This document shows positions 1,669 through 54,057 of a stretch of DNA of 57,115 nt, one piece after another (positions within the stretch are counted from its first letter, which is position 1; every line of letters starts with the position of its first letter). The DNA is from Candidatus Kaiserbacteria bacterium (GTDB lineage Bacteria > Patescibacteriota > Minisyncoccia > Phycocordibacterales > Phycocordibacteraceae), in the NCBI GenBank assembly GCA_016194455.1, contig JACQBN010000010.1:1-57115 (forward strand). The letters run 5' to 3'. The notes below the pieces were generated by a model, which made no database searches, had not been told where the DNA came from, and saw only the letters and a program-made list of their open reading frames with translations. The translations under genes and the position numbers were made by a program.

Positions 1669-1694
1669 AGTTCGTCTCATTTATACTCTCCCTC

Positions 1695-3017
1695 ATGACT
1701 CGCTATCGGGTGGCTGCCGTGATTGCGCTTATCGCCGGATTCTTGCTCGCCTATTTCATCTGGGCGAGCGATGCCTCTCCCGAGAGCCGCTACCGCTTCA
1801 AGCTCGGGCTTGACCTGGCCGGCGGCACCGAGCTCGTCTACAAGGCCGATATGTCGCAAACTCCAGCAGCCGAGCAGTCCGGCGCTCTCACCGCGCTCCA
1901 GGGCGTCGTCGAGCGGCGGGTAAACCTTTTCGGCGTCGCGGAGCCCCTGGTCCAGACCGAGCGCGCAAGCGCACTCTCTGGCACCACCGAGGATCGTTTG
2001 ATAGTCGACTTGCCGGGCGTCACCGACATCAACGCCGCAGTCGCTGCGCTCGGCAAAACGCCAACGCTGGAATTCAAACTTGCGACAACTGCTCCCGCGG
2101 GCCCGGGGCAGGCGACCAGCTCTGTCGCTTTCATCACCACCGGCCTTACCGGCCGCTATCTCTCGAGTGCCGCTTTACAATTTGGTAGCGGAGCGACCGC
2201 GGGTCTCGTCTCTCCCGAGGTTCTGCTTACCTTCAACGCTGAAGGAGCGAAGCTTTTTGAACAGCTCACGAGCCAAAACGTCGGCCAAGTACTCGCGATA
2301 TTTCTTGATGGCCAACCCATTTCAACGCCCGTCATTCAAGAAGCGATCCCGGGCGGGGTCGCGACCATTACCGGTCACTTCAGCGCGACCGAGGCGCGCG
2401 ACCTAGTGCGGAACCTCAATTTCGGCGCGCTGCCCGTCCCGATCACACTCGAAAGTTCTTCGGCAGTTGGCCCCACCTTGGGCGCCGCAGCGATTGCCGC
2501 CGGCGTGGTCGCCGGGCTCCTCGGCTTCGCGATCGTCGCGCTCTTCATGACCCTCTGGTACCGCTTCGCGGGCCTCATCGCGGCGGTGGCGCTCGCGGAG
2601 TATCTGGTCTTCATGCTCTCCATCATCAAGGTAATCCCGATTACCCTCACCGCTTCGGGCATCGCGGGGCTTATCATCTCGCTTGGCATGGCGGTGGACG
2701 CGAATGTGCTTATTTTCGAGCGCACCAAGGAGGAGCTCCGCGAGGGGAAGCCGCCGCGCGAGGCGGTGCATATCGGCTTCGCGCGCGCGTGGACCGCGAT
2801 CCGCGACGGCCACCTCACCATGCTCATCTCGGGCGTCATCCTCTTCTGGCTCGGCACTTCTATCGTGCAGGGCTTCGCGCTCGTCTTCGTGCTCGGGGTG
2901 CTCGCCTCCTTCATCTCCGCGGTTTCGCTCTCGAGAGTGTTCCTGCTCGCTCTTGTGCCAGGCGAACAAGGCGGCGGGTGGCGCTTCCTGCTCGGCAGCG
3001 GTTTCCGTAACAACTGA
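1695..3017 (+). CDS. secD: protein translocase subunit SecD
   Basis: KLGLDLAGG, RRVNLFGVAEP, GALPVP, VGPTLG, GMAVDANVLIFER motifs. Confidence 0.97.
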   Translation: MTRYRVAAVIALIAGFLLAYFIWASDASPESRYRFKLGLDLAGGTELVYKADMSQTPAAEQSGALTALQGVVERRVNLFGVAEPLVQTERASALSGTTEDRLIVDLPGVTDINAAVAALGKTPTLEFKLATTAPAGPGQATSSVAFITTGLTGRYLSSAALQFGSGATAGLVSPEVLLTFNAEGAKLFEQLTSQNVGQVLAIFLDGQPISTPVIQEAIPGGVATITGHFSATEARDLVRNLNFGALPVPITLESSSAVGPTLGAAAIAAGVVAGLLGFAIVALFMTLWYRFAGLIAAVALAEYLVFMLSIIKVIPITLTASGIAGLIISLGMAVDANVLIFERTKEELREGKPPREAVHIGFARAWTAIRDGHLTMLISGVILFWLGTSIVQGFALVFVLGVLASFISAVSLSRVFLLALVPGEQGGGWRFLLGSGFRNN

Positions 3018-3020
3018 TCT

Positions 3021-3920
3021 ATGTACATCGCTCGCCATCGCACACTCTTCTTCTGGATCACCGGCCTCCTCCTTGCGGCCGCCGTCGCCGCAATCCTATT
3101 CTTCGGGCTCCCACTCGGCATCGACTTCACCGGCGGCTCACTGATGCAAATTTCGTATCCTGCTGGGCGCCCTGCACTCGCCACGATCCAAGAGCAGGTA
3201 GCGAGCATTCCGCTTGGCGCCGTCTCGGTCATCCCCTCGGGAGCAAATAACGTTTCTATCCGTACGCGCACGATGACACCTGCCGAGCATTCTGCTGTCC
3301 TCTCCGCCATATCAGGGAATGCACTCATCTCCGAGCTCGCCTACACCTCGGTAGGTCCCGCGCTCGGGAGCCAGTTCGCTGCCAAAGCGCTCTGGGCACT
3401 CATCGCAGTCATTCTTGTTATCGTCCTCTATATCACTTTCGCCTTCCGCAAGGTGTCGCGGCCAGTGCCCTCCTGGTGCTACGGCCTCACGGTCGTCGCG
3501 ATTCTCGCTCATGACCTCATCATCCCCGCCGGCTTCTATGCCATCCTCTGCTACTTCACCGGCGCGCAAGTAGATTCGCTCTTCGTCGTCGCGCTCCTTG
3601 CCTTGCTCGGCTATTCGGTCAATGACACCATCGTTATCTTCGACCGCGTGCGCGAGCACCTCGCGAGGAACGAGAAGACCGGATTGCGCGAGGAGTTTGT
3701 AGACACCGTCGGTAAATCGATCAGCGAAACGATGACCCGCTCCATCAACACCTCCTTCACCGTTATCCTCGCGCTCTCGGCGCTCATCTTCCTCGGCGCC
3801 GCAGTGACCCGCAACTTCGCGCTCGTGATGCTGGTCGGGGTGATTGCCGGCACCTATTCCTCCATCTTGCTCGCCGCACCGCTCTTGGTCCCGCTTGCGC
3901 GCCGCTTCGCCCGCACATGA
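3021..3920 (+). CDS. secF: protein translocase subunit SecF
   Basis: LGIDFTGGS, GYSVNDTIVIFDRVRE, RSINTS, GTYSSI motifs; directly follows secD. Confidence 0.97.
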   Translation: MYIARHRTLFFWITGLLLAAAVAAILFFGLPLGIDFTGGSLMQISYPAGRPALATIQEQVASIPLGAVSVIPSGANNVSIRTRTMTPAEHSAVLSAISGNALISELAYTSVGPALGSQFAAKALWALIAVILVIVLYITFAFRKVSRPVPSWCYGLTVVAILAHDLIIPAGFYAILCYFTGAQVDSLFVVALLALLGYSVNDTIVIFDRVREHLARNEKTGLREEFVDTVGKSISETMTRSINTSFTVILALSALIFLGAAVTRNFALVMLVGVIAGTYSSILLAAPLLVPLARRFART

Positions 3921-4483
3921 TCATCGGTATCACCGGCACGCTGGGCGCGGGTAAAGGAGAAGTCGCAGAATATTTGGTCAAGCAAAAGGGCTTCAAGCAC
4001 TATTCTTCTCGGGCACAAATCGTCGCGGAGATTGAGCACCGTGGTCTACCGGTAAATCGCGACACGATGACAGCAGTTGCCAACGATATGCGTCGTACAC
4101 ACGATCCAGCGTATCCGCAGCCGCAATCGTATGAGCAAGCACTTGCCGATCACGCAGAGAATGCCGTCATGGAGTCGGTTCGCGAAGTAGCCGGCGCAGC
4201 GTTTCTCAAGGCGCACGGCGCATTCCTGATCGGCGTCGACGCGGATCCGCGCATTCGCTACGAGCGCGCGATTAAGCGAGGGTCGAGTACGGATCATATA
4301 GATTTCGAAACATTTGTCGCGCAGGAGAAGCGGGAAATGCAGAACACCGACCCAACAAAACAGAATATCGGCGCCATCATGAAGATGGCGGATGCCGTGC
4401 TCACCAACAACGGCACGAAAGAAGAGCTGCATCAGCAGATAGAACAAACGCTTCAAACATTCAGCGCCTCCGACAAGGATTGA
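3917..4483 (+). CDS. P-loop nucleotide kinase-like protein (dephospho-CoA/NMP kinase fold)
   Basis: IIGITGTLGAGKG Walker A, ADPRIRYER, ADAVLTNNGT; ATGA overlap with secF. Confidence 0.8.
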   Translation: MIIGITGTLGAGKGEVAEYLVKQKGFKHYSSRAQIVAEIEHRGLPVNRDTMTAVANDMRRTHDPAYPQPQSYEQALADHAENAVMESVREVAGAAFLKAHGAFLIGVDADPRIRYERAIKRGSSTDHIDFETFVAQEKREMQNTDPTKQNIGAIMKMADAVLTNNGTKEELHQQIEQTLQTFSASDKD

Positions 4484-5334: not shown

Positions 5335-6822
<1,488 letters not shown>

Positions 6823-6975
6823 AATGGAACCGATTTTCTCGAAAGGAAGATCACGTCGATCTGATTCGGCAAGAATCAGGGGAGATTGCTTTCGTCCCTA
6901 CACGAAGCACGGACGCCGGATAACGTATCCCGGTGTCCCGAGTCGAGATCCTCAATTGAGATTTCGACGAGGGGC
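6823..6975 (+). ncRNA. structured 3' trailer of the 16S (five hairpins), function unknown
   Basis: Consecutive stem-loops, including GAAA and GGCAA loops, enclosed by the processing stem. Confidence 0.5.
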
Positions 6976-7241: not shown

Positions 7242-7271
7242 CAGATAGAAACGCGCGTTATACTGAAAGCA

Positions 7272-7766
7272 ATGAAAGACGCGCTTGTGGTCGTTGCGCT
7301 TGCGCTCGTCGCTATTGCTGTGGGCGCCGTCCTCTACACGAAGAATCCCGCCGCGCCTTCCGCGCCAGCGACGATCGCGGGCACGCCCGTCTCCTTCAGC
7401 ACGCTTGCTTCGGGAATTGAATCGAGCGTCAAAGAGCCTAAAAATTACCTCATCACCTCGGAGCCCGGGCTCCAAGAGCTCTGGCAGATGATCAACAGTC
7501 AGGATCCGCCGCCTATAATTGACTTCACCAAGAATTCCGTCATCGCGATCTTCGCGGGCGCCGAGCCCACCGCGGGCTACGAGATTAAGGTCTCCGCTAT
7601 AGCGGACAGTGCCTCACGCCAAGTCCTGATTGTACTCACCAAACCGGGCGGCAGCTGCATCGTGCCGCAGATCGTCACGGCGCCCTACGAAGTCGTCGAG
7701 CTCCCCGCCACAGCGCTCCCGCTCACCCATCAACAGGCAGTAGAGACGACAAGTTGTTTGCAGTAA
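7272..7766 (+). CDS. membrane-anchored protein with PrcB C-terminal-like domain
   Basis: N-terminal TM; IDFTKNSVIAIFAGAEPTAGYEI and C..PQIVTAPY pattern. Confidence 0.75.
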   Translation: MKDALVVVALALVAIAVGAVLYTKNPAAPSAPATIAGTPVSFSTLASGIESSVKEPKNYLITSEPGLQELWQMINSQDPPPIIDFTKNSVIAIFAGAEPTAGYEIKVSAIADSASRQVLIVLTKPGGSCIVPQIVTAPYEVVELPATALPLTHQQAVETTSCLQ

Positions 7767-8237: not shown

Positions 8238-8260
8238 ACCTCGCATGCTAGAGTGCGCAG

Positions 8261-8932
8261 ATGTCGGGAACATTAAGCGTCGTCGCGACTCCGATCGGGA
8301 ACTTGGGCGATATCACGTTGCGCGCGCTCGAGACCCTCAAACAGGCGGACGCAATCGCCTGCGAGGACACACGCGTCTCGGCGAAGCTGCTTGCGCGCTA
8401 CGACATCTCCAAGCCGCTTCTCATCTTCCACGCGCGAAGCGGCCAGAGGGCCGCTTCGCGCGTGCTCGCGTTGCTTGCCGAAGGGAAGCGCGTCGCGCTT
8501 ATCACTGATGCAGGCACGCCCGGCATCTCGGATCCGGGCACTGCGCTCGTCAAGGACGCGCGCGCCATCGGCGCGCGCGTTGAAGCAATCCCCGGCCCCT
8601 CCGCGCTCACCGCAGCACTCTCTATCGCCGGAGTACCTGCTGACGAATTTGTATTTCTTGGCTTCCCACCCCACAAGAAGGGCCGCCAGACTTTTTTCAA
8701 GAATCTTGTGCGCGAGGAGGGCACAGTCGTTTTCTATGAATCGCCGCACCGCGTCCTCAAGGCGCTTACAGCGCTCGCTTCCGCATTGCCTACTCGCCCT
8801 CTTACTATTTGTCGCGAGCTCACCAAGATCCACGAGTCGGTCCTCTCGGGGACCGCGGCAGAACTCGCCGCACATTTCGCGGCACATCCGGGCGAAGTCC
8901 GCGGCGAGTTTGTCGTCATTGTCGCGCCCTGA
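8261..8932 (+). CDS. rsmI: 16S rRNA (cytidine1402-2'-O)-methyltransferase
   Basis: VATPIGNLGDIT, ACEDTR, DAGTPGISDPG, FYESPHR, RELTKIHE. Confidence 0.96.
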   Translation: MSGTLSVVATPIGNLGDITLRALETLKQADAIACEDTRVSAKLLARYDISKPLLIFHARSGQRAASRVLALLAEGKRVALITDAGTPGISDPGTALVKDARAIGARVEAIPGPSALTAALSIAGVPADEFVFLGFPPHKKGRQTFFKNLVREEGTVVFYESPHRVLKALTALASALPTRPLTICRELTKIHESVLSGTAAELAAHFAAHPGEVRGEFVVIVAP

Positions 8933-8944
8933 TATACTCAGCCA

Positions 8945-9145
8945 ATGTCTCGCTCTTCTTCGCTTATCGTGCTTGGCGTCCTCACGATGCTGACACCCTT
9001 CTCGGGCTTGCCTTCCGCATTCCGCACGTTCCTGACGCTCCTCGTCGGCGCTATCGCGCTTGGGATCGGGGTCGCGGAGCGCGCCGAGCGGGCGCGCGCA
9101 TCACTTCCATCTGCCGCGCCCGCGCCCAATGCCCCCGCGCCCTAA
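8945..9145 (+). CDS. small two-TM membrane protein
   Basis: Two hydrophobic helices around PFSGLP; TATACT 6 nt upstream. Confidence 0.7.
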   Translation: MSRSSSLIVLGVLTMLTPFSGLPSAFRTFLTLLVGAIALGIGVAERAERARASLPSAAPAPNAPAP

Positions 9146-10771: not shown

Positions 10772-10802
10772 CTTCTTCATACTAGCGCTATACTAGCCAC
10801 TA

Positions 10803-12566
10803 ATGGCCATCGATAACCCCGAGCGCGTGACCTACTTCGCCGCGACCGACTCTCGCGGGAAGAAAATACCCTTTGGCATCAAGCAGAAGGATCGGGACCG
10901 CCACATGTACGTCATCGGCAAGACCGGCATGGGTAAGTCGACCCTACTCGAAAACATGGCAATCCAGGATTTGCGGAACGGCGAGGGCATTGCCTTCATC
11001 GACCCGCACGGCGGTACCGTTGATCGCCTCCTGGATTACATCCCGCAGGAGCGGGTCAAGGACGTCGTCTACTTCGCCCCCTTCGATATGGAGAATCCGA
11101 TCGCCTTCAACGTCATGGAGGACGTCGGCTACGATAAGCGCCACCTCGTCGTCTCGGGGCTCATGGCCACCTTCAAGAAGATTTGGGAGGACGCGTGGAG
11201 CGCGCGCATGGAGTATATCTTGACCAACACGCTCCTTGCGCTTCTGGAATATCCGGGCGCGACTCTGCTCGGGGTCAATCGCATGTACACCGACAAGGGC
11301 TACCGCGCCAAGGTCATTGATAACGTGAAGGACCCAGTCGTGAAGGACTTCTGGCTGAAGGAATTTGCTAACTACGGCGACCGCTACACGCAGGAAGCGA
11401 CGCCCGCGATACAGAACAAGATCGGCCAGTTCACGGGGAATCCGCTCATCCGCAACATCATCGGGCAGCCCAAATCTTCCTTTGACATCCGTACGATGAT
11501 GGACGAACGCAAAATCCTCCTCATCAATCTCTCCAAGGGGCTGGTGGGGGAGACCAACATGCGCCTGCTGGGCTCTATGCTCACCACGCGCATCTTCCTC
11601 GGGGCGATGAGCCGCGCGAATCTCGCGGCTGGGGAGCTCGCGAAACTCCCACACTTCTATTTCTACGTCGACGAGTTCCAGAACTTCGCGAACAAGACTT
11701 TCTCCGAGATTCTCTCCGAGTCGCGCAAGTATCGGCTGGACCTCACCATCGCCCACCAATATATTGAACAAATGGAGGAGGAGGTACGCGATGCGGTCTT
11801 CGGCAATGCGGGGACGACCATTGCGTTTCGCGTTGGGCCGTTTGACGCCGAAGTGTTGGAGACCGTTTTCATGCCGCGCTTCACCAAGGAGGACATCGTG
11901 AGCCTCGATAAGCGGCAGATCTATCTCTCCCTCATGATTGATGACGTCGGGTCGCCTCCCTTCTCCGCCGTCACCATCCCGCCCATAGAAGCGCCACCGG
12001 TCTCGTACCACCAAGACGTTATCGCCTGGTCGCGTAAACAGTTCACCACTCCGCGCGGCGGGATCGAGAAGGCGATTATGGACGAACTCTCCGCGAGTCT
12101 CGCGGCCGAGATACCCGCCGATGCCCGGATGAAAAAGAAGTACGGGGCGCCCGTGCCACCTCGCGCGGCGGTTACCGCGCCGCACCCGCCGAGCGCCCAG
12201 GCACCATACTCGATCAACAGGCGTCCGCCGGACGAGGAACAAAAGTCTGGCCCCGCACAGCGGGGAGATCCGAGGACTTTTGTGAAACGTTCGGCGGACG
12301 CCCAGACCCCGTCTCCGCAACTGCCCGTTCCAAGCAAGAGCCCTGAAGATTTAAAAACAATTTTGCGCACAATGACCAGAGAGAGTACGAAGAGCCAGGA
12401 GCAGAAGAAGTCAGAGCAACAGCAGTCGTTGAAGAGCGTCTTGGCCGCGACGCTTGCGAAGAACACACTGCCTCCTCCGGTGCCTGCGCCTGCTCCAACC
12501 GCAGAGAAGAAGCCGTTTGAGATTCCCGAGGACGCGCTCCGCAAGGTGCTGAAGGGCGATGCATAA
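10803..12566 (+). CDS. VirD4/TrwB/HerA-like type IV coupling ATPase (CPR-type), Pro-rich C-terminal tail
   Basis: RHMYVIGKTGMGKS Walker A, IDPHG, YVDEFQNF Walker B, SESRKY, AHQYIEQ. Confidence 0.88.
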   Translation: MAIDNPERVTYFAATDSRGKKIPFGIKQKDRDRHMYVIGKTGMGKSTLLENMAIQDLRNGEGIAFIDPHGGTVDRLLDYIPQERVKDVVYFAPFDMENPIAFNVMEDVGYDKRHLVVSGLMATFKKIWEDAWSARMEYILTNTLLALLEYPGATLLGVNRMYTDKGYRAKVIDNVKDPVVKDFWLKEFANYGDRYTQEATPAIQNKIGQFTGNPLIRNIIGQPKSSFDIRTMMDERKILLINLSKGLVGETNMRLLGSMLTTRIFLGAMSRANLAAGELAKLPHFYFYVDEFQNFANKTFSEILSESRKYRLDLTIAHQYIEQMEEEVRDAVFGNAGTTIAFRVGPFDAEVLETVFMPRFTKEDIVSLDKRQIYLSLMIDDVGSPPFSAVTIPPIEAPPVSYHQDVIAWSRKQFTTPRGGIEKAIMDELSASLAAEIPADARMKKKYGAPVPPRAAVTAPHPPSAQAPYSINRRPPDEEQKSGPAQRGDPRTFVKRSADAQTPSPQLPVPSKSPEDLKTILRTMTRESTKSQEQKKSEQQQSLKSVLAATLAKNTLPPPVPAPAPTAEKKPFEIPEDALRKVLKGDA

Positions 12567-13320
12567 ATATTTTCTCGTCTTCGCGTTCCTCGCGCTCCCG
12601 GCGGCAGCGCATGCCGCCGTGCTTATCAACGAAGTCGCGTGGATGGGTACCACCGTCAGCGCGAACGCCGAGTGGATCGAACTCGCCAATACTGGCGCCG
12701 CGCCCGTGGACCTCTCCGGGTGGCGGCTCATGGCGGCGAGCAGCTCGCCCGCGATCACGCTCACCGGTTCTATCGCGGCGAGCGGATATTATCTGTTGGA
12801 GCGAACTTCAGACAATTCTGTGCCGAACATTTCTGCCGATCAGATCTACACTGGCGCGCTCCCCAACTCCGGCACCACGCTCACACTCTTTGACGCCACA
12901 GGCGCGACCGAGAACACTATTGTCGGCGGACTCAACTGGGTGAATATCGGCGGCGACAACAAAAGTAAGAAGACCGCCCAGCGCCTGCCTGCGCAGGCAG
13001 GAACGGCAACCAGCTGGGAAACAGCAACCCCGACGCCGCGCGCTGCGAATGCGACCTCGGCTCCCGCTGTCGCAGCGAAACTTCCCGCGCCCCCGATGAG
13101 TTCTACCAGGGTGCAGAAGGTCGAAGCTGCCGTCGGTACGAGCCTAAGCGAACCCACGCATGAAGAGACAGCGGTAATCGCCCCCGCGACGACGACTCCA
13201 CTCGCCGCCGCGGGGGCGGCCGAGCCGACTCCGCGAAGTGCAGGGCTCCTCTCTTCACCTTGGATGTTTGGTTTCATCGGTCTCTTGGTCGCGGCAGCCG
13301 GAGCGTTTATACTCCTCTAA
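12559..13320 (+). CDS. lamin-tail-domain (LTD) surface protein
   Basis: Signal peptide (AHA), VLINEVAWMG, EWIELAN, VDLSGWRL, C-terminal TM. Confidence 0.85.
   Translation: MHKYFLVFAFLALPAAAHAAVLINEVAWMGTTVSANAEWIELANTGAAPVDLSGWRLMAASSSPAITLTGSIAASGYYLLERTSDNSVPNISADQIYTGALPNSGTTLTLFDATGATENTIVGGLNWVNIGGDNKSKKTAQRLPAQAGTATSWETATPTPRAANATSAPAVAAKLPAPPMSSTRVQKVEAAVGTSLSEPTHEETAVIAPATTTPLAAAGAAEPTPRSAGLLSSPWMFGFIGLLVAAAGAFILL
12984..13001. repeat. 18 bp perfect palindrome in frame in a CDS
   Basis: CCTGCCTGCGCAGGCAGG, encoding LPAQAG. Confidence 0.7.
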
Positions 13321-18321: not shown

Positions 18322-18384
18322 AATCGACACGGTACCATGATTCTGGTAACCACTGTCGGGGTTTGCGCGTTACGAGAAGTACCA

Positions 18385-19242: not shown

Positions 19243-19269
19243 AGCGTGGGACCGCGTAGAATAGGTCCT

Positions 19270-25613: not shown

Positions 25614-25642
25614 AAGATAGCATACCCAATAAAATATGTCAA
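25614..25642 (-). promoter_or_regulatory. sigma70 promoter TTGACA-17-TATCTT
   Basis: Minus-strand consensus -35 with TGc extended -10. Confidence 0.75.
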
Positions 25643-28689: not shown

Positions 28690-28703
28690 GGTACACTCTT
28701 TCT

Positions 28704-32211: not shown

Positions 32212-32278
32212 GGAGCGCCTCTATCGTACCATCGCGAGCAGGCTTAGGTTACCGAAGATATGCGTTATAGTGGCCGCT

Positions 32279-34953: not shown

Positions 34954-34955
34954 CT

Positions 34956-37551: not shown

Positions 37552-37581
37552 CGGCCGATTCCCCGTGCTACGATTCGTCCA

Positions 37582-41700: not shown

Positions 41701-41738
41701 CCGCGTGATTATATACTACCGAGCGTTGTGGTCCCGTC

Positions 41739-44296: not shown

Positions 44297-44312
44297 GATA
44301 CTATGGTACTCC

Positions 44313-46475
44313 ATGTCGGGGACGGCGAAGCAAATCGCACGATGGACAGCACTCGGGGCGCTCTTCCTCATACCACTTACGCCGCTTATCGTTGCGAACG
44401 GTTTCTTCTTCCCGTTCATCACCGCGAAGGCCTTCTACTTCCGCAGTCTGGTGGAGATCACGGTTTGCGCCTGGGCCGTGCTTGCGCTGCTGGATACAGA
44501 ATATCGCCCGCGCTTCTCGTGGGTTGGCGCGGCGGTGCTCGCGTTCGTGCTCTGGATGTTCGTTGCGGATGCCTTCGCGATCAATGCCTTCAAGGCCTTT
44601 TGGAGCAACTTGGAGCGCATGGAGGGATGGGTGCTGCTCATCCATCTTCTCGGATTCTTCTTCGCGGCTTCTGCGGTGCTGCGTACGGAGCGAAAATGGC
44701 GCGGCTGGTTCCTCACCTCGCTCGCCGTCTCCCTCGTCGTCTCTGCCCACGCACTGCTGCAGCTTAGCGGCGCGCTCTCGATCCACCAGGGTTCCATTCG
44801 CATCGACGCGTCTTTCGGTAACTCGGCGTATCTGGCAATCTATCTCCTCTTTAACGTCTTTATCGCGCTCTGGCTCGCGTTTGGCGAAAAGCGCATCTGG
44901 CTGAGGTGGGGCCTCATTGCACTCGCTGCGCTTGAAGCCGTATTCATCTTCTTCACCGAGACGCGCGGTACGGTGCTCGGGCTCGTGGGCGCTCTCCTGC
45001 TCGCCGCGCTCCTCACCGCGGTCACGGGAGGGAGGCGCGCCCGCCGCCTCGCGGCGGGCGCGTTCGTACTTATCCTCGTGCTTGCGGGAGGCTTCTTCTT
45101 GGCGCGCAACTCAAGCTTCGTCCAAAATAATTCCAGCTTACAACGTATTGCCTCCGTCTCGCTCGCGGACGGCCAGACGCGCTTCACCATTTGGCACATG
45201 GCATGGGAGGGGTTCCTCGAGAGCCCGGTGGTCGGCTGGGGGCAGGAGGGCTTCAACTACGTTTTCAATAAGTTCTACGAGTCCTCGCTCTACACGCAGG
45301 AGCCGTGGTTTGATCGCGCGCATAACGCATTCCTTGATTGGCTCACCGCCGGCGGAGCGCCTGCGTTCCTGCTCTACCTCTCGCTCTTCATTACCGCGCT
45401 TATCGCGCTCTGGCGGAGCTCAACGCTCGCGCGCGCCGAACGCGTCCTGCTCACCGCCGCGCTCGCGGGCTACGCCTGCCACAATCTCTTCGTTTTTGAT
45501 AATCTCTATTCGTACGTCTACTTCTTCGCGATACTTGCGCTCATCGATGCGCAACTATCGCGCCCGATCCAGACGTTTGAGTCGGCGCCTGCACTCACCG
45601 GTGAGCGCGGCCTCACCTACGCGCTCCCGCTCGCGAGCGTAGCGGCACTCATACTCATCTGGTTCGTGAACGTGCCGGGGCTCCGCGTAGGGACTGAACT
45701 CATCACTGCGCTCTCGCCCTCGCCCTCGGGTCTCTCGGCGAACCTTGCGACTTTTGAAGATCTTGCGGCGCATCCCGCTTTCGCCGCGCAGGAGGTGCGC
45801 GAGCAGATCGTCTCCTTCGCAAATATGCTTGCGCAGAACCCGAATGTCCCCGCGGACCAGAAGCAATCGTTCGCCACGCTCGCCGTTGCAGAAATCAGCA
45901 AGGAGGTCGCGGCGCATCCGCGTGACGCGCGCGCGCGACTCGAGCTCGTCTTCGCGTATCGCACCCTCGGTGATACACCCGGCGCTCTTAAGGAGCTCCA
46001 AGCAGCTGCGCTACTCTCGCCGGGCAAGGAGGATATTTATGTCCAACAGGGGGTCGCCGAGTGGGACGCGGGCGATGTCAAAGCGGCACAAGCCGCGTTC
46101 AGTAAAGCGTATACGCTCGGGCCACAGTTTAGCGATCTGGCCGCCGCCGCCGCCGCTGGCGACTTCGTGGCGGGCGATGCGGCTGCGGGCGATGCGCTCC
46201 TCATCAAGGCTTTCGGGACTACGGTGGCGGACAGCGACATCCTCGCCTCCGCTTATTACCGTACCAAGGCCTGGGGGCGACTGATCGCGCTCTGGCAGAT
46301 GCGCGCGAGTAAACCCGGCGCGAGCGCGCAGACGCTCTTTGGGCTCGCGGCCGCCTACTACGCCGCGGGAGAGAAAGCACAGGCGATCGCCGCTATCCAA
46401 CACGCGATTGAAGTCTATCCGCAGGCCGCCTCTGCGGGCGCCGCGGCGATAGCACAGATCAAGGCGGGGCAATGA
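44313..46475 (+). CDS. O-antigen ligase (Wzy_C/PglL-like) with C-terminal TPR-like repeats
   Basis: ERMEG, SFGNSAY, TETRG, R..IW...GWGQEGF, DRAHN, Ala-rich helical repeats. Confidence 0.88.
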   Translation: MSGTAKQIARWTALGALFLIPLTPLIVANGFFFPFITAKAFYFRSLVEITVCAWAVLALLDTEYRPRFSWVGAAVLAFVLWMFVADAFAINAFKAFWSNLERMEGWVLLIHLLGFFFAASAVLRTERKWRGWFLTSLAVSLVVSAHALLQLSGALSIHQGSIRIDASFGNSAYLAIYLLFNVFIALWLAFGEKRIWLRWGLIALAALEAVFIFFTETRGTVLGLVGALLLAALLTAVTGGRRARRLAAGAFVLILVLAGGFFLARNSSFVQNNSSLQRIASVSLADGQTRFTIWHMAWEGFLESPVVGWGQEGFNYVFNKFYESSLYTQEPWFDRAHNAFLDWLTAGGAPAFLLYLSLFITALIALWRSSTLARAERVLLTAALAGYACHNLFVFDNLYSYVYFFAILALIDAQLSRPIQTFESAPALTGERGLTYALPLASVAALILIWFVNVPGLRVGTELITALSPSPSGLSANLATFEDLAAHPAFAAQEVREQIVSFANMLAQNPNVPADQKQSFATLAVAEISKEVAAHPRDARARLELVFAYRTLGDTPGALKELQAAALLSPGKEDIYVQQGVAEWDAGDVKAAQAAFSKAYTLGPQFSDLAAAAAAGDFVAGDAAAGDALLIKAFGTTVADSDILASAYYRTKAWGRLIALWQMRASKPGASAQTLFGLAAAYYAAGEKAQAIAAIQHAIEVYPQAASAGAAAIAQIKAGQ

Positions 46476-47709: not shown

Positions 47710-47741
47710 CGCAAAAGGCTCCCCGAGGGGAGCCTTTTGCG
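47710..47741 (+). terminator. intrinsic terminator (possibly bidirectional)
   Basis: CGCAAAAGGCTCCCC-ga-GGGGAGCCTTTTGCG. Confidence 0.85.
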
Positions 47742-47755
47742 TTATAGTGCTCGCG

Positions 47756-50278
47756 ATGGCCAGTTTCCTCTCGCGAATGTTTTCGCAGAACCAATCCGCC
47801 GCTTTCCTCAAGGCCGCGGCGCCCGTCGTTGCGGCTGCCAACCATCTTGCATCCGAGTTCGAAGCGCTTAAGGATGCGGAGCTCAAGGGCCGGTTCGCGG
47901 AGGTGCAAAGCCGCGCCCGCCAGGCGGGCGCGGCTCCTGAGGCCGACCTTCCGCTTATCTATGCACTCGTGCGTGAGGCAGCGCGGCGCACACTTATGCA
48001 GCGGCCTTTCGATGTCCAGCTCATCGGCGGCCTTGTGCTTTCCCGCGGCAAGATCGCCGAAATGCGCACCGGCGAGGGTAAGACCCTCGTCGCGACACTG
48101 CCCGCCTCCTCCGCCGCGCTCGCCGGGAAGGGCGTGCACATCGTCACGGTGAACGACTACCTCGCGCGCCGCGACGCCGCGTGGATGGGGCAGATCTACG
48201 ACTACCTCGGGCTCACAGTAGGAGTGGTGACCTCGACCGGTAGCTATCGCTACGATGCGTCGCATGTCGAGCGAAGCGAAGACCCCGAACGAGACAGCGA
48301 AGGCTCGTTCAGAGTTTTCTACGACTACTTGAAACCGGTGACTAAGAAAGAAGCATACGCGGCCGACATCACCTATGCGACCAACAACGAACTCGGTTTC
48401 GATTATCTGCGCGACAACACCGCATACGACGCGTCGCAGATCGTGCAGCGCGGGCATCACTACGCGATCATCGACGAAGTGGATTCCATTTTGATCGACG
48501 AGGCGCGCACGCCGCTCATCATCAGCGGCCCCGCGGGCGACTCGGGGAATCTGTATCAGCAGTTCGCCGGCATCGTCCGCAACTTCAAACGCGGCGAAGA
48601 TTACACCGTGGACGAGAAGCAAAAGGCCGTGCAGATCACCGAAGAGGGGATGCATAAGGCCGAAATCGCGCTGTCGATGGAGAATATCTATACCGAAGGG
48701 GGAATGAAATATGCCCACCATCTTGAAACTGCTGTGCGAGCCCAAGCCCTCTTCAGTAAAGACAAGGAATACGTGGTCAGAAACGGCGAAATCGTGATTG
48801 TGGACGAGTTCACCGGGCGGCTGCAGCCTGGCCGGCGCTGGAGCGAAGGGCTCCACCAAGCAATTGAGGCAAAGGAGGGCGTGGCGATCAACGCCGAGAC
48901 GCGCACCTACGCGACCGTCACCTTCCAGAATCTCTTCCGCATGTACGAGAAGCTCGCGGGCATGACGGGCACCGCGCTCTCGAGCGAGGAAGAGTTCTTC
49001 ACGGTCTACGGGCTTGAGGTCGTCGTGGTGCCAACCCACAAACCGATGGCGCGCAAGGACCACAACGATCTCATCTTCCAGAGCGCGGCAGGGAAGTATC
49101 GCGCGGTCGCTCGCGCGGTCAAGGAGCGGCAGGAGCACGGGCAGCCGGTTTTGGTGGGCACCGTCTCTATTGAGGACAACGAAACAGTGAGCCGCTATCT
49201 CAAGGACGCGGGCGTGGCGCATGAAGTGCTGAACGCGAAGAATCACGAGCGCGAAGGCGAGATCATCGCCGAGGCGGGCGCGCCCGGCAGGGTGACGGTC
49301 GCGACCAACCTCGCAGGCCGCGGCGTCGACATTAAGCTCGGTGGCGCACTCGCCTCTTCGGAGGCGCGGAGCGCGGTGATTGCGCAGGGCGGGCTCGCGG
49401 TCGTCGGCACCGAGCGACACGACGCGCGCCGCATCGACAATCAACTCCGTGGCCGCTCCGGCCGCCAGGGCGATCCGGGCGAGACGCGCTTTTATGTTTC
49501 ACTTGAGGATAAATTGATGCGCGTCTTCGCCGCGGAGACCTTGAAGAAGGTGATGGGCGGCTTCGGCATCCCCGAGGACGAACCGATCGAGAGCGGTATG
49601 ATTACTAAATCCTTAGAGACCGCGCAGGGAAGAATAGAAGGGTTCAACTTCGACTCGCGTAAGCAAGTACTCGCCTACGACGACGTGATGAACACGCAGC
49701 GCCTCGCGATTTATGCTCGTCGCCGTGCCTTATTGGTGGGCACTGACGCCGAGGTCGAGGCGCTCGTGCGCACCCTCATCGCGGCCGACGATGCGGCGAC
49801 CGCCGCATTCGAGGAAAAGAAAAAGCTCTTGGCAGAGGCGTTTACTCCGCTTCTGCGGCATTTGCTCCTGCAGATCATTGATACTTTTTGGTTGGAACAT
49901 TTGGAAACAATGGATTATCTACGGCGCTCGGTATCGCTCCGGGCGTACGGGCAGCGTGATCCACTGATCGAGTACCGCCGCGAGGGGCTCGCGCGCTTCC
50001 GCGCGCTTGAAGCGAGTATTAAGGAGGCAGTGACCCGCACGCTGCCTACCGTCGCGCTCCGGGACGACGCGCGTATTAAGGCCGAAGAAGAAAGGGCGCG
50101 TGCCGCTCTCCTTGCCGCCGCCGAGCGCGAAGGTGGCGCCTCCGGCCAGCCGATCGTCCGCGCCCACACGCCCGGCCGCAACGACCTCGTCACCATCAAG
50201 AAGGGCGAGGAAACCAAAACGCTGAAATTTAAGAAAGCCGCACCGCTTCTCGCCGAGGGGTGGATTCTTGCCTCATGA
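47756..50278 (+). CDS. secA: protein translocase subunit SecA
   Basis: EMRTGEGKT, VTVNDYLA, IDEVDSILIDEARTP, GMTGTA, QLRGRSGRQGDPG, YGQRDPLIEY. Confidence 0.98.
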   Translation: MASFLSRMFSQNQSAAFLKAAAPVVAAANHLASEFEALKDAELKGRFAEVQSRARQAGAAPEADLPLIYALVREAARRTLMQRPFDVQLIGGLVLSRGKIAEMRTGEGKTLVATLPASSAALAGKGVHIVTVNDYLARRDAAWMGQIYDYLGLTVGVVTSTGSYRYDASHVERSEDPERDSEGSFRVFYDYLKPVTKKEAYAADITYATNNELGFDYLRDNTAYDASQIVQRGHHYAIIDEVDSILIDEARTPLIISGPAGDSGNLYQQFAGIVRNFKRGEDYTVDEKQKAVQITEEGMHKAEIALSMENIYTEGGMKYAHHLETAVRAQALFSKDKEYVVRNGEIVIVDEFTGRLQPGRRWSEGLHQAIEAKEGVAINAETRTYATVTFQNLFRMYEKLAGMTGTALSSEEEFFTVYGLEVVVVPTHKPMARKDHNDLIFQSAAGKYRAVARAVKERQEHGQPVLVGTVSIEDNETVSRYLKDAGVAHEVLNAKNHEREGEIIAEAGAPGRVTVATNLAGRGVDIKLGGALASSEARSAVIAQGGLAVVGTERHDARRIDNQLRGRSGRQGDPGETRFYVSLEDKLMRVFAAETLKKVMGGFGIPEDEPIESGMITKSLETAQGRIEGFNFDSRKQVLAYDDVMNTQRLAIYARRRALLVGTDAEVEALVRTLIAADDAATAAFEEKKKLLAEAFTPLLRHLLLQIIDTFWLEHLETMDYLRRSVSLRAYGQRDPLIEYRREGLARFRALEASIKEAVTRTLPTVALRDDARIKAEEERARAALLAAAEREGGASGQPIVRAHTPGRNDLVTIKKGEETKTLKFKKAAPLLAEGWILAS

Positions 50279-50308
50279 CAGACCCTGCCCCCCAATATAT
50301 TTAAAGTA

Positions 50309-50881
50309 ATGGAAGTTTTTGATAAGGAAAAAATCGGAAAGTGCATCGCGTGGGGAGGGGAACACCTAGTGTATGACTACGGCGATACCCAGGTCATAAA
50401 GTTCTCGCTTTTTGATCTGCTGATCGGTCTCCGGCTCGCGCGCATAAAGACTATGCATGATCTCACAATCTGCCGCGAGTTTTTCAGCGACTACATGCTC
50501 TCCACCACGCTCGTCTCGTCGTCAGACGGCAGGCGGCTTGCCAAGCTCCAACCAAAAATAACGGGTCGAGCCATCAAGAAGAGTGATCTGCAGGATAAAA
50601 GGATCGCGCAGCAGTTTAAGGAAATAATTCGGGCGCACCAAGCCCTGGTAGCCCAGGGGTATTACGGCGTAGACCTTATTGGCGGTAGGGGAGTGCTCCT
50701 CGCTCGTCCAACCAACATCTTCCTTACCGTCACCGGCAAGCTCTATCTTATTGACACGCTCTTGCTTTCCGTCCCCGAGCTTCCGTGGCTGCAATGGCTT
50801 TTCAACATTTTTCGCGACGTCGCTATCTGGAATCAGATTCGAATCATAAAAAGTTTCTTATCGGCCTGTGAGGAAAAGTAA
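50309..50881 (+). CDS. hypothetical protein, weak kinase-like fold
   Basis: GGEHLVY, VIK, DL...TNIF, LYLIDT; lower GC than flanks. Confidence 0.6.
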   Translation: MEVFDKEKIGKCIAWGGEHLVYDYGDTQVIKFSLFDLLIGLRLARIKTMHDLTICREFFSDYMLSTTLVSSSDGRRLAKLQPKITGRAIKKSDLQDKRIAQQFKEIIRAHQALVAQGYYGVDLIGGRGVLLARPTNIFLTVTGKLYLIDTLLLSVPELPWLQWLFNIFRDVAIWNQIRIIKSFLSACEEK

Positions 50882-50900
50882 ATCGTGATAGGGTGAGCCA

Positions 50901-51881
50901 ATGGCATTTGTTGATGAAGTGAGGATACGTGCGGCGGCGGGGAAGGGCGGCAACGGCGTCGTTCGCTGGCTGCGTAACAAAGAGACCGCGAAGGGAGGTC
51001 CCTCGGGCGGCGATGGAGGTAGGGGTGGCGACGTTGTTGTGATTGGTGTGCGCGACCTAGCGGTGCTCGCCAACTATCGCTACGAGAAGGACTTTCAAGC
51101 AGAGGACGGCCAAGACGGTGCCGGACAACTGAAGCACGGCAAGAACGGAGAACCAGTCATTTTGAAAGTACCGGTGGGCACGCTCGCGCGCGTTGTAGAA
51201 ACTGGCGAGGAGTTTGATATCCATACCGAGGGAGAGCCGGTGATTATTTTCAAAGGCGGCGGGGGCGGCAAGGGCAACGTTCATTTCAAGGGCTCCACAA
51301 ACCAGAACCCGTTCCAACAAACAGACGGCAAATCGGGAGGGGCTGGGGATATCGAATTCACGCTCAAATTGATCGCCGACGCAGGCCTCATCGGGCTCCC
51401 GAATGCTGGGAAGTCCTCACTCCTCAACGCGCTCACGAAGGCAAAGTCAAAAGTCGGCGCGTATCCCTTTACCACCCTCGAGCCGAACCTTGGCGACTTC
51501 TTCGGCCACATCCTCGCCGACATCCCTGGCCTCATCGAAGGCGCCTCGGCTGGGCGAGGGCTCGGAATAAAATTTTTAAAACACGTAGAACGAACAGGAA
51601 TTTTATTGCATCTCGTCTCGGCAGAGCAAGACGATCCTGTCGCGGCCTATAGGGAAGTGGTGGGGGAGCTCAACGCTTTCGGCCACGGCCTCGGCGATAA
51701 GCGCGAGATCGTTGTCCTCACCAAGACCGATCTCCTCTCGCCCAAGGAGGAGAAAACAAAAGCCGACGTTCTTGCCCGCGAGACCGGGCGAGAGGTACTC
51801 ACGGTTTCCGTGGAAGATCTGCAAAAGTTGAAGAGATTTTCCGACCACCTCGCAACCTTACTTCGCGCCCCCCGGGCTTAG
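50901..51881 (+). CDS. obg: GTPase Obg/CgtA (no C-terminal OCT domain)
   Basis: FVDE, GGDGGRGG, GLPNAGKS, YPFTT, DIPGLIEGA, TKTD. Confidence 0.97.
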   Translation: MAFVDEVRIRAAAGKGGNGVVRWLRNKETAKGGPSGGDGGRGGDVVVIGVRDLAVLANYRYEKDFQAEDGQDGAGQLKHGKNGEPVILKVPVGTLARVVETGEEFDIHTEGEPVIIFKGGGGGKGNVHFKGSTNQNPFQQTDGKSGGAGDIEFTLKLIADAGLIGLPNAGKSSLLNALTKAKSKVGAYPFTTLEPNLGDFFGHILADIPGLIEGASAGRGLGIKFLKHVERTGILLHLVSAEQDDPVAAYREVVGELNAFGHGLGDKREIVVLTKTDLLSPKEEKTKADVLARETGREVLTVSVEDLQKLKRFSDHLATLLRAPRA

Positions 51882-51897
51882 TGCTAGGATGGGCGCG

Positions 51898-53286
51898 ATG
51901 GCACTACTCCCCACCATCGGGCTCGAGATCCACGCAGAGCTCCGGACTTCGACCAAGATGTTCTGCAACTGCAAGAACGATCCGGACGAAGAGCGGCCGA
52001 ACGTCAATATCTGCCCGATCTGCCTCGCGCATCCGGGTACGCTGCCGGTCATTAATCGCGAGGCGGTGCGGCAAGTCTTGCGCGCTGGCGCGGCCCTCGG
52101 CGGCACGCTTGCTCACTTCAGCGAATTTGATCGCAAGAGCTACTTCTATCCGGACATCCCCAAGGGTTATCAGATCAGCCAGTATGAGCACCCGTTGGTC
52201 ACTGGTGGCACGCTCGCCGGTGTCGCGATAACGCGCATACATTTAGAAGAGGATACCGCCCGTTCAACACACGGGGAAAACAAAAGCCTTATCGACTTCA
52301 ATCGCGCGGGCATTCCGCTCATGGAGCTCGTGACCGAGCCGGTCATCCACGACGCGAAGACGGCGGGCGACTTCGCGCGCGAACTGCAACTCCTGCTGCG
52401 CACGCTCGGCGCCTCCGAGGCGAACTTAGAGAAAGGCGAGATGCGCATCGAGGCAAATGTCTCAGTCGCGAGCGGGGAAGAGAGGCTCGGCACCAAGACC
52501 GAGGTCAAAAACCTGAACTCATTCCGCTCCGTCGAGCGCGCTATCGCCTATGAGATCGAGCGACAGACCAAGGCGTTTGAGCGCGGAGAGAAGCTCGCTC
52601 AGGAGACGCGCGGCTGGGACGAGACGAAGCAAGAGACCTTCCATCAGCGATTCAAAGAGGGAAGCGCAGACTATCGCTACTTCCCCGAGCCGGACTTGCC
52701 GAAGCTCGTGCTCGAGGACGTTCCGGAATTTGCGTGCGAAGCGCTTACCGCGTCGCTCCCCGAACTTCCGAGCCAGAAGCGGGAGCGCTATGCAAGGCTC
52801 GGGATAAAGTCCGACGACAGAGCATATCTCGCTGCGGATGTTGCACGCAGCGCTTTCTTCGATGCCGTAACAAAAGAACTCGACGGTCGTCCAAAGTCCA
52901 CCGTGCTTGCTGCTAATTATTTTATATCAGACATGGCCGGCGATCCGTGCGTAGCGTCACCGAGTTCCTTCGCTGCTCTCATACAAATGTTCGCCGCCAA
53001 CGAACTCTCCTCACGCGGGGCGAAGGACGTACTCGCGATTATGATCACGAAGGGTGGGGAACCAGCCGTAATCGCAAAAGAACGCGGACTCGGACAAATC
53101 CAAGACCGCGGAACGCTAGAAGCGGCGGTAGAACGCGTGATGGAGGAGGAGCCCGGAGCAGTCAAGGAGTACCGGGCAGGCAAAAGCGGCACTCTCCAGT
53201 ACCTGCTCGGCAAGGCGATGAAGGTGACAGGCGGGGCAGGAGATCCGGAGCTTCTTAGGGAGATTCTCATAAAAAAGCTCGGTTGA
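51898..53286 (+). CDS. gatB: Asp-tRNA(Asn)/Glu-tRNA(Gln) amidotransferase subunit B
   Basis: IGLEIH, YFYPDIPKGYQISQ, HLEED, DFNRAG, EVKNLNS, DYRYFPEPD. Start 51898 preferred to 51889 from the -10 spacing. Confidence 0.97.
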   Translation: MALLPTIGLEIHAELRTSTKMFCNCKNDPDEERPNVNICPICLAHPGTLPVINREAVRQVLRAGAALGGTLAHFSEFDRKSYFYPDIPKGYQISQYEHPLVTGGTLAGVAITRIHLEEDTARSTHGENKSLIDFNRAGIPLMELVTEPVIHDAKTAGDFARELQLLLRTLGASEANLEKGEMRIEANVSVASGEERLGTKTEVKNLNSFRSVERAIAYEIERQTKAFERGEKLAQETRGWDETKQETFHQRFKEGSADYRYFPEPDLPKLVLEDVPEFACEALTASLPELPSQKRERYARLGIKSDDRAYLAADVARSAFFDAVTKELDGRPKSTVLAANYFISDMAGDPCVASPSSFAALIQMFAANELSSRGAKDVLAIMITKGGEPAVIAKERGLGQIQDRGTLEAAVERVMEEEPGAVKEYRAGKSGTLQYLLGKAMKVTGGAGDPELLREILIKKLG

Positions 53287-53290
53287 TTAT

Positions 53291-53299
53291 TTATACACA
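53291..53299 (+). promoter_or_regulatory. DnaA box (TTATACACA)
   Basis: Matches TTWTNCACA, just upstream of the HTH gene promoter. Confidence 0.4.
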
Positions 53300-53340
53300 A
53301 CCCCCTCCTTCACGAGCCCAGGAAGGCTTATACTAATTGG

Positions 53341-54057
53341 ATGAATGAGATAGTTATCGAAGACAAGAAGTACGTCTCGTCCAAGCGAGCTGCGGAAATC
53401 ACCGGCTACGCCAAGGACTATATCGGTCAACTCTGCCGAGAAGGCAGAGTCCCGGCGCGTCTTATCGGACGCAACTGGTACGTGCTCGAGTCTGCTATAC
53501 AGGACCACCGCTTCGGTGATCCCACACCCACGCCGGGCCCACATGAGGGGGAAGCGTCTGTAAGCCGATTTTCAGCCGACACATGGGAGGTTCCTCGTTA
53601 CGAGGCCCTAGACGCGAAGGAGCTGCCCCCGGTAGACGAGGCCTCAGATTACGGTAATACTCCCCCAGGGGTGGATACGATGCCAGAAGAAGAGCAGAAG
53701 GAACAAGCCCGGGTCACCGATATGCGCGAAGAATGGCAGGCCTGGTTTGATAAGAGCCAGCAGGAAAAGTCCATGAACTCGGTCGCAGAGGAAGTTACGC
53801 GTCATGAAGAGCCAGAAGAGCAGGAAATCCCAGTGTCGATTAAACCAATAGCCCGTCCGCTACAAGAGACCCAGCAAGCCAGGAGCCCAAAGTCGGCAAA
53901 AACTAGAAGAAGCTGGCTTTTACCGCAACTCACAGCGCTTTTCGTAGCACTAATTGCTATCGTCACGCTCGCTCTGAATTCCGGCTACTTTGATACTTTT
54001 ACCGTCTCTTATACCCAAGCCTCAGTTATAACTGGAATAAGGGTCTACAATAAATAG
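53341..54057 (+). CDS. excisionase/MerR-like HTH protein with acidic linker and C-terminal TM
   Basis: YVSSKRAAEITGYAKDYIGQLCREGRVPARLIGRNWYV; Glu-rich linker; LTALFVALIAIVTLAL. Confidence 0.85.
   Translation: MNEIVIEDKKYVSSKRAAEITGYAKDYIGQLCREGRVPARLIGRNWYVLESAIQDHRFGDPTPTPGPHEGEASVSRFSADTWEVPRYEALDAKELPPVDEASDYGNTPPGVDTMPEEEQKEQARVTDMREEWQAWFDKSQQEKSMNSVAEEVTRHEEPEEQEIPVSIKPIARPLQETQQARSPKSAKTRRSWLLPQLTALFVALIAIVTLALNSGYFDTFTVSYTQASVITGIRVYNK

Follow-up and report, generated by a model that had tools for sequence, protein, structure and literature searches.

Candidatus Kaiserbacteria bacterium, an ultra-small member of the Patescibacteriota here represented by the complete 57,115-nucleotide (nt) contig JACQBN010000010.1 (contig C7; hereafter the window) and by the rest of its assembly, carries a TAnnnT hexamer a few nucleotides before the start codon of a large share of its genes, at the place where a ribosome-binding site (RBS) would usually be sought. 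These boxes are very probably extended -10 sigma-70 promoters giving rise to leaderless mRNAs, with the native genes located downstream in the operons free of Shine-Dalgarno (SD) sequences and translated through stop/start coupling. The 16S rRNA of this organism has lost the anti-SD sequence, and the box is conserved at orthologous starts in its relatives.

The assembly comprises 603,616 nt in 31 contigs, with 59% GC, an estimated completeness of 83% and a contamination of 1%. Genes were predicted by using a self-trained three-periodic Markov model, a crude gene finder that returned 546 genes and 85% of coding sequence; 528 genes served as the genome-wide denominator. In what follows, box stands for TAnnnT and d for the number of nucleotides between the hexamer and the start codon.

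Box-to-start geometry in the window

A preliminary description of the window, made from its sequence, had listed 19 genes with TAnnnT located 6–8 nt before the start, and all 19 boxes were found at that spacing, each one followed by an ATG (Table 1). For two genes the start is shifted with respect to another candidate, as the hexamer and spacing given for them already imply: secA begins at ATG 47756 instead of the in-frame GTG 47747, and gatB at ATG 51898 instead of ATG 51889. Considering about 49 genes in the window (45 called and 4 added) and the rate of 1.8% observed at internal ATGs for d = 6–8, the binomial probability of 19 hits is approximately 8e-21. The same description held that several boxes have a TGn extension and that none of the genes has a clear SD. 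By script, the hexamer is preceded by TGn in 6 of the 19 sites, and taking the hexamer at d = 8 for 44313 raises the count to 7. In two cases an SD-like 4-mer was noted 4–12 nt before the ATG, neither of them credible, as the one of gatB is part of its TAGGAT box and the one of the minus-strand gene 44296 sits upstream of the -10 box.

The start codons themselves are anchored by protein domains, since in the rsmI-like gene, 13321, 41700 (minus strand), secA, obg and gatB the Pfam domain starts at residues 3–7 of the product. The divergent genes 44296 (minus) and 44313 (plus) have their ATGs 16 nt apart, each box being located within the first codons of the other gene. This crowding, together with a secA box that comes straight after a hairpin, leaves no room for a leader of useful length.

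Positional enrichment across the genome

The enrichment of TAnnnT at a fixed position was checked against internal controls under two rules, and a sharp peak was found at d = 6. By the narrow rule, in which only the first in-frame ATG of each gene is considered, the box is present at d = 6 in 87 of the 528 genes (16.5%), at d = 7 in 36, at d = 8 in 25 and at d = 9 in 26, and at the remaining upstream offsets in 0.4–2.7% of genes. At internal in-frame ATGs (n = 2103) the corresponding values were 0.7%, 1.0%, 0.1% and 0.5%, and among all 14,971 ATGs they ranged from 0.6% to 1.1% across d = 6–9 (1.1% at d = 6). By the broad rule, which accepts TAnnnT at d = 5–9 before any candidate start up to 120 nt from the first start of the open reading frame (ORF), 213 of the 528 genes (40%) have a box, compared with 35 of 919 internal control windows (3.8%). 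The starts of these 213 genes are 192 ATG, 14 GTG and 7 TTG. The share of 40% is probably an underestimate, because the pipeline missed or mis-started four of the window genes described before: 8945, 18321 (minus) and 44296 (minus) were not called, and 32279 was over-extended, being called from TTG 32138. A box is present in 158 of the 335 genes whose upstream neighbour is divergent or ends more than 20 nt away; 66 box-bearing genes are divergently oriented and 57 have an upstream gap of more than 60 nt, and these therefore head transcription units.

The enrichment could, in principle, be an artefact of gene calling or base composition, with starts chosen behind AT-rich intergenic DNA. Start choice could inflate the count, and the upstream regions are AT-richer than coding DNA. 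However, the peak is present with the plain rule of the first in-frame ATG, TAnnnT occurs at d = 25–29 in 6.0% of genes vs. 31.6% at d = 5–9, and the matched internal control remains at the value given above. A control of the pipeline with 100 kb of Escherichia coli K-12 was negative for the box (TAnnnT at d = 5–9 in 1.3%), and in this control SD-like motifs were recovered at 39.5% of starts vs. 1.5% of controls. Moreover, Pfam anchoring and the conservation between orthologues are independent of the gene finder. The artefact was thus tested, the result stands against it, and its probability is close to nil.

Promoter identity

When the sites are aligned on the hexamer, T is found in 52% at position -3 and G in 60% at position -2, neither of which was used in the selection. 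The dinucleotide TG at -3/-2 is present in 41.0% of 212 boxes vs. 4.0% of 1806 intragenic TAnnnT sites. The hexamers seen most often are TATACT (35) and TAGAAT (15), and TTG at the -35 distance (spacer of 16–18 nt) is found in 13.7% of boxes vs. 3.5–4.7%. Judged by these sequence patterns, the boxes are sigma-70 promoter elements of the extended -10 kind, in which the -35 is weak. The genome has a gene for a complete primary sigma factor, in which regions 1.1, 1.2, 2, 3 and 4 are all present. In sigma-70 promoters, 6 nt separate the -10 hexamer from +1, and a 6-nt gap between hexamer and ATG would therefore make the A of the ATG the canonical +1. A Pribnow-to-start spacing of 6–8 nt is the one given for leaderless genes by GeneMarkS-2 (Lomsadze et al., 2018, PMC6028130).

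A different reading takes TAnnnT as a signal on leadered mRNAs that binds the ribosome or enhances translation without SD, of the Bacteroidetes type called group B. The box does occupy the position of an RBS, in an organism without anti-SD another signal might be expected, and GeneMarkS-2 gives near-start non-SD motifs in group B genomes (PMC6028130). We nevertheless consider this highly improbable, as the boxes display the invariant T-A...T pattern of a -10 element, the unselected TGn (41% vs. 4%) and the weak TTG at -35 distance. Furthermore, the secA box adjoins a strong hairpin, divergent pairs leave 16–38 nt between their starts, and GGAUA, the complement of the variant 16S tail described below, is not enriched before starts.

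Conservation in relatives

Relatives were represented by 60 genomes, 36 of the same genus and 24 of other families of the order, and for SecA and Obg the 30 best loci each among these 60 were compared. TAnnnT at d = 5–9 was found at 23 of 30 orthologous SecA starts, with the consensus tggTATAGT, and at 25 of 29 orthologous Obg starts, with the consensus tgtgcTAGGGT; in both cases the flanks diverge. In G017, a complete genome of the same genus (993,452 nt, 53% GC), the box is present in 345 of 735 genes (47%), at d = 6 in 162 of them, compared with 85 of 1341 control windows. For the box-bearing genes of our organism whose orthologous start could be placed in G017, the box is retained at 95 of 128 (74%), a proportion which argues for selection on the exact geometry; a G017 box was found at 13 of 60 orthologous starts (22%) for the coupled class described below and at 7 of 42 (17%) for unclassified genes. 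Samples of 100 kb from three further genomes, one of the same genus and one from each of two other families of the order, show the peak at d = 6 as well, and when these are pooled with the G017 sample it reaches 15.7% vs. 1.0%.

Genes without a box and the proposed mode of initiation

The earlier statement that many remaining genes overlap the previous stop is borne out, since 132 of 315 box-less genes overlap, or lie within 20 nt of, the same-strand upstream gene. This coupled class contains 28 four-nucleotide overlaps (ATGA in 23, GTGA in 3 and TTGA in 2) and 49 gaps of 0–4 nt. GGAG is depleted upstream of its members (1.5% vs. 8.0% in controls), and this depletion fits an SD-free coupling.

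The mode of initiation that we propose would begin with an extended -10 element, TGnTAnnnT, with little or no -35, located 6–7 nt (less often 5–9 nt) before the start codon. RNA polymerase would start at the A of AUG or within 1–2 nt of it, as we infer from promoter geometry, and the resulting mRNA would have neither leader nor RBS. By analogy with Actinobacteria and Deinococcus, the 5'-terminal AUG would then be bound by ribosomes carrying the initiator tRNA, with no SD pairing, a mode of initiation that fits a 16S rRNA without CCUCC. For the native downstream genes of an operon, terminating ribosomes probably restart at the adjacent start codon. A separate accessory minority carries canonical -35/-10 promoters, leaders and SD-like motifs.

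If the boxes are real promoters, most of the protein might still come from longer polycistronic or leadered transcripts, with the leaderless mRNAs being a minor or regulatory fraction. The box-bearing genes located close behind a same-strand neighbour speak for this, as does the more distant secA box in some relatives. Against it stand the 66 divergent genes and the 57 with a gap above 60 nt, which head transcription units, and the retention of the box at 74% of orthologous starts, so that we judge this possibility to be improbable.

Several results weigh against leaderless initiation with coupling as a general account. There are 46 box-bearing genes located up to 20 nt behind a same-strand upstream gene, and these may also be read from longer upstream transcripts. 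Several of the SecA loci without a box at d = 5–9 carry it 15–21 nt upstream (e.g., L100, L104 and L105), which means that short leaders without SD occur in the lineage too. A home-made gene finder supplied both the gene calls and their starts, and the figure of 213 genes permits a choice among candidate starts, for which the matched control is 3.8%. In the region 37500–57115, a promoter scan requiring a -35 returned 7 sites vs. 5.2 expected, these promoters having no -35 hexamer, and a terminator scan requiring at least five T returned 17 sites vs. 19.9 expected, these hairpins having no such T run. The preliminary description had let initiation run on leaderless starts plus translational coupling, and genes of these two kinds make up about 65% of the total (213 + 132 of 528); outside them remain 45 genes (8.5%) which have an SD-like motif at canonical spacing though the anti-SD is gone, and 138 genes (26%) which belong to no class. 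Under the first-candidate rule, 41% of the 138 start with GTG or TTG, and many of them are probably mis-started. Taken as a prediction for about two-thirds of the genes, leaderless initiation plus coupling is well supported by the sequence evidence.

Loss of the anti-Shine-Dalgarno sequence

The preliminary description also named the loss of the anti-SD in the 16S rRNA, and alignment of the tail GGAACAUAUCCGAA with the Rfam model confirmed that it has no CCUCC (Table 1). A second 16S copy with an intact anti-SD was considered and rejected, as the assembly holds a single 16S 3' end. Tails were readable in 28 of 30 fetched 16S loci, and CCUCC is absent from all 28, which correspond to this genome and 27 relatives (16 of the same genus and 11 of other families of the order). 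The 17 tails of the genus, this genome included, read GGA(A/U)CAU(A/U)UCC, and the 11 tails of the other families read GGAAUAUUUC, GGAUUAAUUCC and similar. In a draw of 151 genomes of the class, a strict canonical 16S tail was found in 27, the 151 including any genomes without an assembled 16S.

Loss of the anti-SD is already published: CCUCCU was reported for only 48% of Parcubacteria, and the lineages concerned were said to overlap with those that have no ribosomal protein uL1 (Tsurumaki et al., 2022, RNA 28:1041, PMC9297842). In our searches uL1 (PF00687) was not found in this genome, which is 83% complete, or in five of five genomes of the same genus with completeness of 91–100% (G017, G003, G023, G035 and G025), and the control search gave a match in 14 of 14 named genomes. 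The missing uL1 agrees with the published overlap between the two losses. The idea that an SD complementary to the variant tail makes up for the loss was also tried and rejected, since GGAUA, GGAU, CGGAUA and others showed no enrichment before starts (GGAUA 0.5–1.5% vs. 0.8%).

The peak at d = 6 was present in four of four sampled relatives without anti-SD vs. none of four sampled class-mates with an intact one. In these four class-mates (G086, G136, G206 and G188; AT-rich, with 31–38% GC; 80–100 kb each) the TAnnnT profile is flat at 5–7%, and TGnTAnnnT at d = 6–9 precedes 1–3 genes per genome vs. 5–11 in the four relatives without anti-SD. The claim that the gene architecture matches the anti-SD loss stands as far as co-occurrence is concerned, and not as a statement of cause, for this sample does not show whether leaderless starts are cause or consequence of the loss. 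The intact class-mates show no SD enrichment either (2–7% vs. 6–11% in controls), and SD use in the class may have disappeared earlier than the anti-SD, the sample being small and non-independent.

A check for rpsA and rpsU had been suggested, and their absence was not borne out, as both genes are encoded: S1 is a 391-amino-acid (aa) protein (Pfam S1, 144 bits), and an S21-like protein of 90 aa has its own box at d = 9 and scores 23.7 bits, below the Pfam cut-off of 27. The loss of S1 or S21 was accordingly rejected. The same applies to the loss of initiation factor 3 (IF3): IF3_C was not found in this genome, at 83% completeness, whereas a match was obtained for 56 of 60 relatives, among them every one of the 50 of high quality, so that its absence was attributed to incompleteness of the assembly. 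The IF3_C match covers profile positions 2 to about 45–68 of 86 in the genus vs. about 75–86 positions in most other families of the order, which may point to a divergent C-terminal part of the factor in this genus.

Two further observations concern the 16S gene. Directly 3' of the tail, at window positions 6826–6860, there is a hairpin whose loop is GAAA (GAUUUUCU-CGAAAG-GAAGAUC), and a conserved GUCGAU comes next. The hairpin is retained in the 17 sequences of the genus, with compensatory changes in the stem (e.g., AU, CG, GC and UA at one pair), and may serve as a stem for processing or extend the 16S at its 3' end. In G006, G007, G017, G016, G020, G034 and others, matches to the 3' part of the 16S are broken into two or three segments separated by about 1 kb, which indicates insertions in several genus members near the equivalent of window position 6692.

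An accessory class with SD-like motifs

Apart from the coupled class, there are 183 other box-less genes, in which SD-like 4-mers peak at 10.4% at d = 7 and 10.9% at d = 8, vs. 0.8–1.9% in controls. The 45 genes with the motif at canonical spacing differ from the remaining genes in several ways. A G017 homologue was found for 6 of the 45 (13%), and far more often for box-bearing (148 of 213), coupled (85 of 132) and other genes (78 of 138), with a Fisher P of 1.9e-11. At least four of the six, with GTG or TTG starts, look over-extended; the other two have ATG starts, and their G017 matches, with 39% and 43% identity, do not look orthologous. The coding score per kb of the SD-like genes is 44.5 vs. 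68.3. A near-consensus full promoter (TTGACA with at most one mismatch, 16–18 nt, TAnnnT, within 100 nt upstream) was found for 13 of the 45 (29%), compared with 5 of 212 box-bearing, 0 of 132 coupled and 11 of 137 other genes, and 6 of 1459 intragenic windows; the leaders of the class measure about 16–50 nt. In G017 the same tendency is weaker, with 5 of 25 SD-like genes having a homologue in the present genome vs. 41–46% for the other classes.

Twelve examples of the class include GcpE, NadA, two ABC transporters, a MoxR ATPase, an SPFH protein and hydrolases, and 8 of the 12 have a Pfam hit. Members are located, for example, at G000 C5:2206, C23:21703, C31:50671 and C17:70640, and the window holds weak candidates at 4586–5059 and 10411–10731. 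Contaminant contigs as the source of these genes were rejected, as the genes stand singly between conserved native genes, on 17 contigs. One case is gcpE/ispG (G000 C17:3241–4359, L139), whose product is 70–85% identical to proteins on contigs mostly labelled Alphaproteobacteria. GcpE was found in 0 of the 60 relatives, the gene is flanked by native genes in this genome, and it looks like a recent acquisition across phyla. An SD imported together with gcpE from its nearest homologues was not supported, since the upstream region with AGGAGAGG is unlike any of the 14 alphaproteobacterial upstream regions compared. From the evidence of homology and promoters, the SD-like genes as a class look acquired.

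Native-type extended -10 boxes were found 23–35 nt upstream of many SD-like genes, and these, together with the unmatched upstream region of gcpE, hint that the SD-like motifs are used. It is conceivable, though unlikely, that the motifs are not relics but functional in a ribosome without anti-SD, with GGAG being recognised by a ribosomal protein or by another segment of the rRNA, so that two grammars of expression would exist side by side. If so, core genes would be written with an extended -10 and without -35, leader or SD, and accessory cassettes with TTGACA-17-TAnnnT, a leader and GGAG.

Further features of the window

The window contains a bacterial 16S rRNA gene (5334–6823) and one tRNA gene. 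The coordinates of the 19 boxes, of two candidates outside the preliminary list and of the other mapped elements are collected in Table 1. The ORF 8945–9145 encodes 66 aa that include two hydrophobic helices, and a perfect TGaTATACT box precedes it by 6 nt. It overlaps, in a different frame, the region where the next gene starts; a small membrane protein of this kind is likely to be overlooked by length-based gene callers. At 23933 and 41739, TATAAT and TATACT boxes are placed 20–21 nt before the ATG, with no SD, and these short-leadered, SD-less genes are examples from the unexplained class.

Table 1. Boxes and other mapped elements of the window (positions in nt; +n, nucleotides between hexamer and ATG).
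Feature	Sequence	Position	Strand	Remarks
secD	TATACT +7, ATG	1682..1697	+	SecD/SecF Pfam domains
Stop/start overlap, example of the coupled class	ATGA	3917..3920	+	Others at 20364 (GTGA), 27583, 34006 and 46472
16S rRNA 3' tail	GGAACAUAUCCGAA; Rfam model GGAUcACCUCCUUu	6810..6823	+	CCUCC reads UAUCC; helix 45 intact
Gene 7272, PrcB_C domain	TATACT +7, ATG	7259..7274	+	Box present in sequence; Pfam domain
rsmI-like methylase 8261	TGcTAGAGT +6, ATG	8249..8263	+	TP_methylase profile position 1 = residue 4
Small ORF 8945, 66 aa, two-helix	TGaTATACT +6, ATG	8933..8947	+	Overlooked by gene finder
VirD4/TraD-like ATPase 10803	TATACT +8, ATG	10789..10805	+	Pfam domain
Epimerase-glycosyltransferase 13321	TATACT +7, ATG	13308..13323	+	Box within last codons of upstream gene; Epimerase profile position 1 = residue 7
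Extra candidate outside the preliminary list	TAAAGT +6, ATG 15423	15411..15425	+	Start overlaps upstream stop by 1 nt
181-aa ORF, start 18321	TGgTACCGT +7, ATG	18319..18334	-	Box in sequence
Glycosyltransferase 19270	TAGAAT +7, ATG	19257..19272	+	Pfam domain
Extra candidate outside the preliminary list	TATTTT +7, ATG at 25623	25621..25636	-	Box in sequence
UDP-GlcNAc 2-epimerase 28704	TACACT +6, ATG	28692..28706	+	Pfam domain
576-aa ORF 32279	TATAGT +7, ATG	32266..32281	+	Longer form from TTG 32138 would reach 74 nt into the divergent gene
GtrA-like gene 37582	TGcTACGAT +7, ATG	37569..37584	+	Pfam domain
Epimerase, start 41700	TATAAT +7, ATG	41698..41713	-	Within 38-nt divergent intergenic region; Epimerase profile position 1 = residue 3
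570-aa ORF, start 44296	TACCAT +6, ATG	44294..44308	-	Box inside first codons of divergent gene
Wzy_C/TPR gene 44313	TGaTACTAT +8, ATG	44299..44315	+	Back to back with 44296 (-), ATGs 16 nt apart
Hairpin, 14 bp, terminator-like		47710..47741	+	Ends 1 nt before secA -10 box; -34.1 kcal/mol, z = -6.9, 0/200 shuffles fold as well
secA	TATAGT +7, ATG (47756)	47743..47758	+	SecA_DEAD profile position 3 = residue 7; box at 23/30 orthologous starts
190-aa ORF 50309	TATATT +7, ATG	50296..50311	+	Box in sequence
obg (ATG 50901)	TGaTAGGGT +6, ATG	50889..50903	+	GTP1_OBG profile position 1 = residue 4; box at 25/29 orthologous starts
gatB	TGcTAGGAT +7, ATG (51898)	51885..51900	+	GatB_N profile position 2 = residue 6
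238-aa ORF 53341	TATACT +6, ATG	53329..53343	+	Box in sequence

Relation to known systems

The layout described here is the known leaderless type of GeneMarkS-2 group C, in this case combined with an absent anti-SD. Group C comprises 1028 of 4769 bacteria, mainly Actinobacteria (e.g., Mycobacterium tuberculosis) and Deinococcus-Thermus (e.g., D. deserti), in which the Pribnow box lies 6–8 nt before the first genes of operons and leaderless transcription is predicted for about 25–50% of operons (Lomsadze et al., 2018, PMC6028130). No lineage of the candidate phyla radiation is named there in the text consulted. The present genome resembles this group in its large share of box-bearing genes (40%, and 47% in G017). 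In group C, however, the remaining genes use an RBS of SD type and the 16S keeps the anti-SD, whereas here the anti-SD is absent, the internal genes are depleted in SD, and SD-like motifs are limited to a small accessory class (45 of 528).

With the Parcubacteria of Tsurumaki et al. (2022, PMC9297842) that have no anti-SD, this genome shares the missing CCUCCU and the missing uL1. In the account given there bS21 is often absent from Parcubacteria, in contrast with the S21-like gene present here (23.7 bits, cut-off 27). Organisms that lack SD pairing or do not use it include Bacteroidetes, some Mycoplasma and Carsonella, and leaderless initiation has been named only as one possible alternative, in a study that leaves CPR bacteria aside (Amin et al., 2018, PMC6107228). 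Our genome is similar to the organisms described there in that the anti-SD is missing without genome-wide SD enrichment and no motif complementary to the variant tail is present, and it differs in that a specific replacement architecture is visible, along with a residual SD-like class.

Leaderless first genes of operons combined with coupled, overlapping internal genes are also a likeness to Haloferax volcanii, assigned to group D by GeneMarkS-2. In archaea of this type the promoter box is located about 26 nt upstream, and transcription relies on a different machinery. Our literature search found no paper describing leaderless genes in bacteria of the candidate phyla radiation (CPR), with the supplementary tables of GeneMarkS-2 and the TM7x transcriptome (PubMed id 35975994) lying outside that search and possibly bearing on the point; for the latter, 188 mapped starts are cited in PMC12641261.

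Implications

The SD-like accessory class constitutes a natural test of SD-dependent genes in a host that is unable to pair with the SD. For genome annotation, the consequence is that gene finders expecting an RBS will misplace starts in genomes of this kind, as exemplified by secA (47747 vs. 47756), gatB (51889 vs. 51898) and the 576-aa ORF (32138 vs. 32279). How start codons are chosen in Parcubacteria without anti-SD is a question that Tsurumaki et al. (2022, PMC9297842), in the text consulted, left unanswered and without mention of leaderless mRNAs. Extended -10 promoters making leaderless mRNAs, together with SD-free stop/start coupling, are proposed here as an answer that can be tested, and promoters and starts defined in this way are a prerequisite for the design of expression constructs in the few CPR bacteria that can be cultured.

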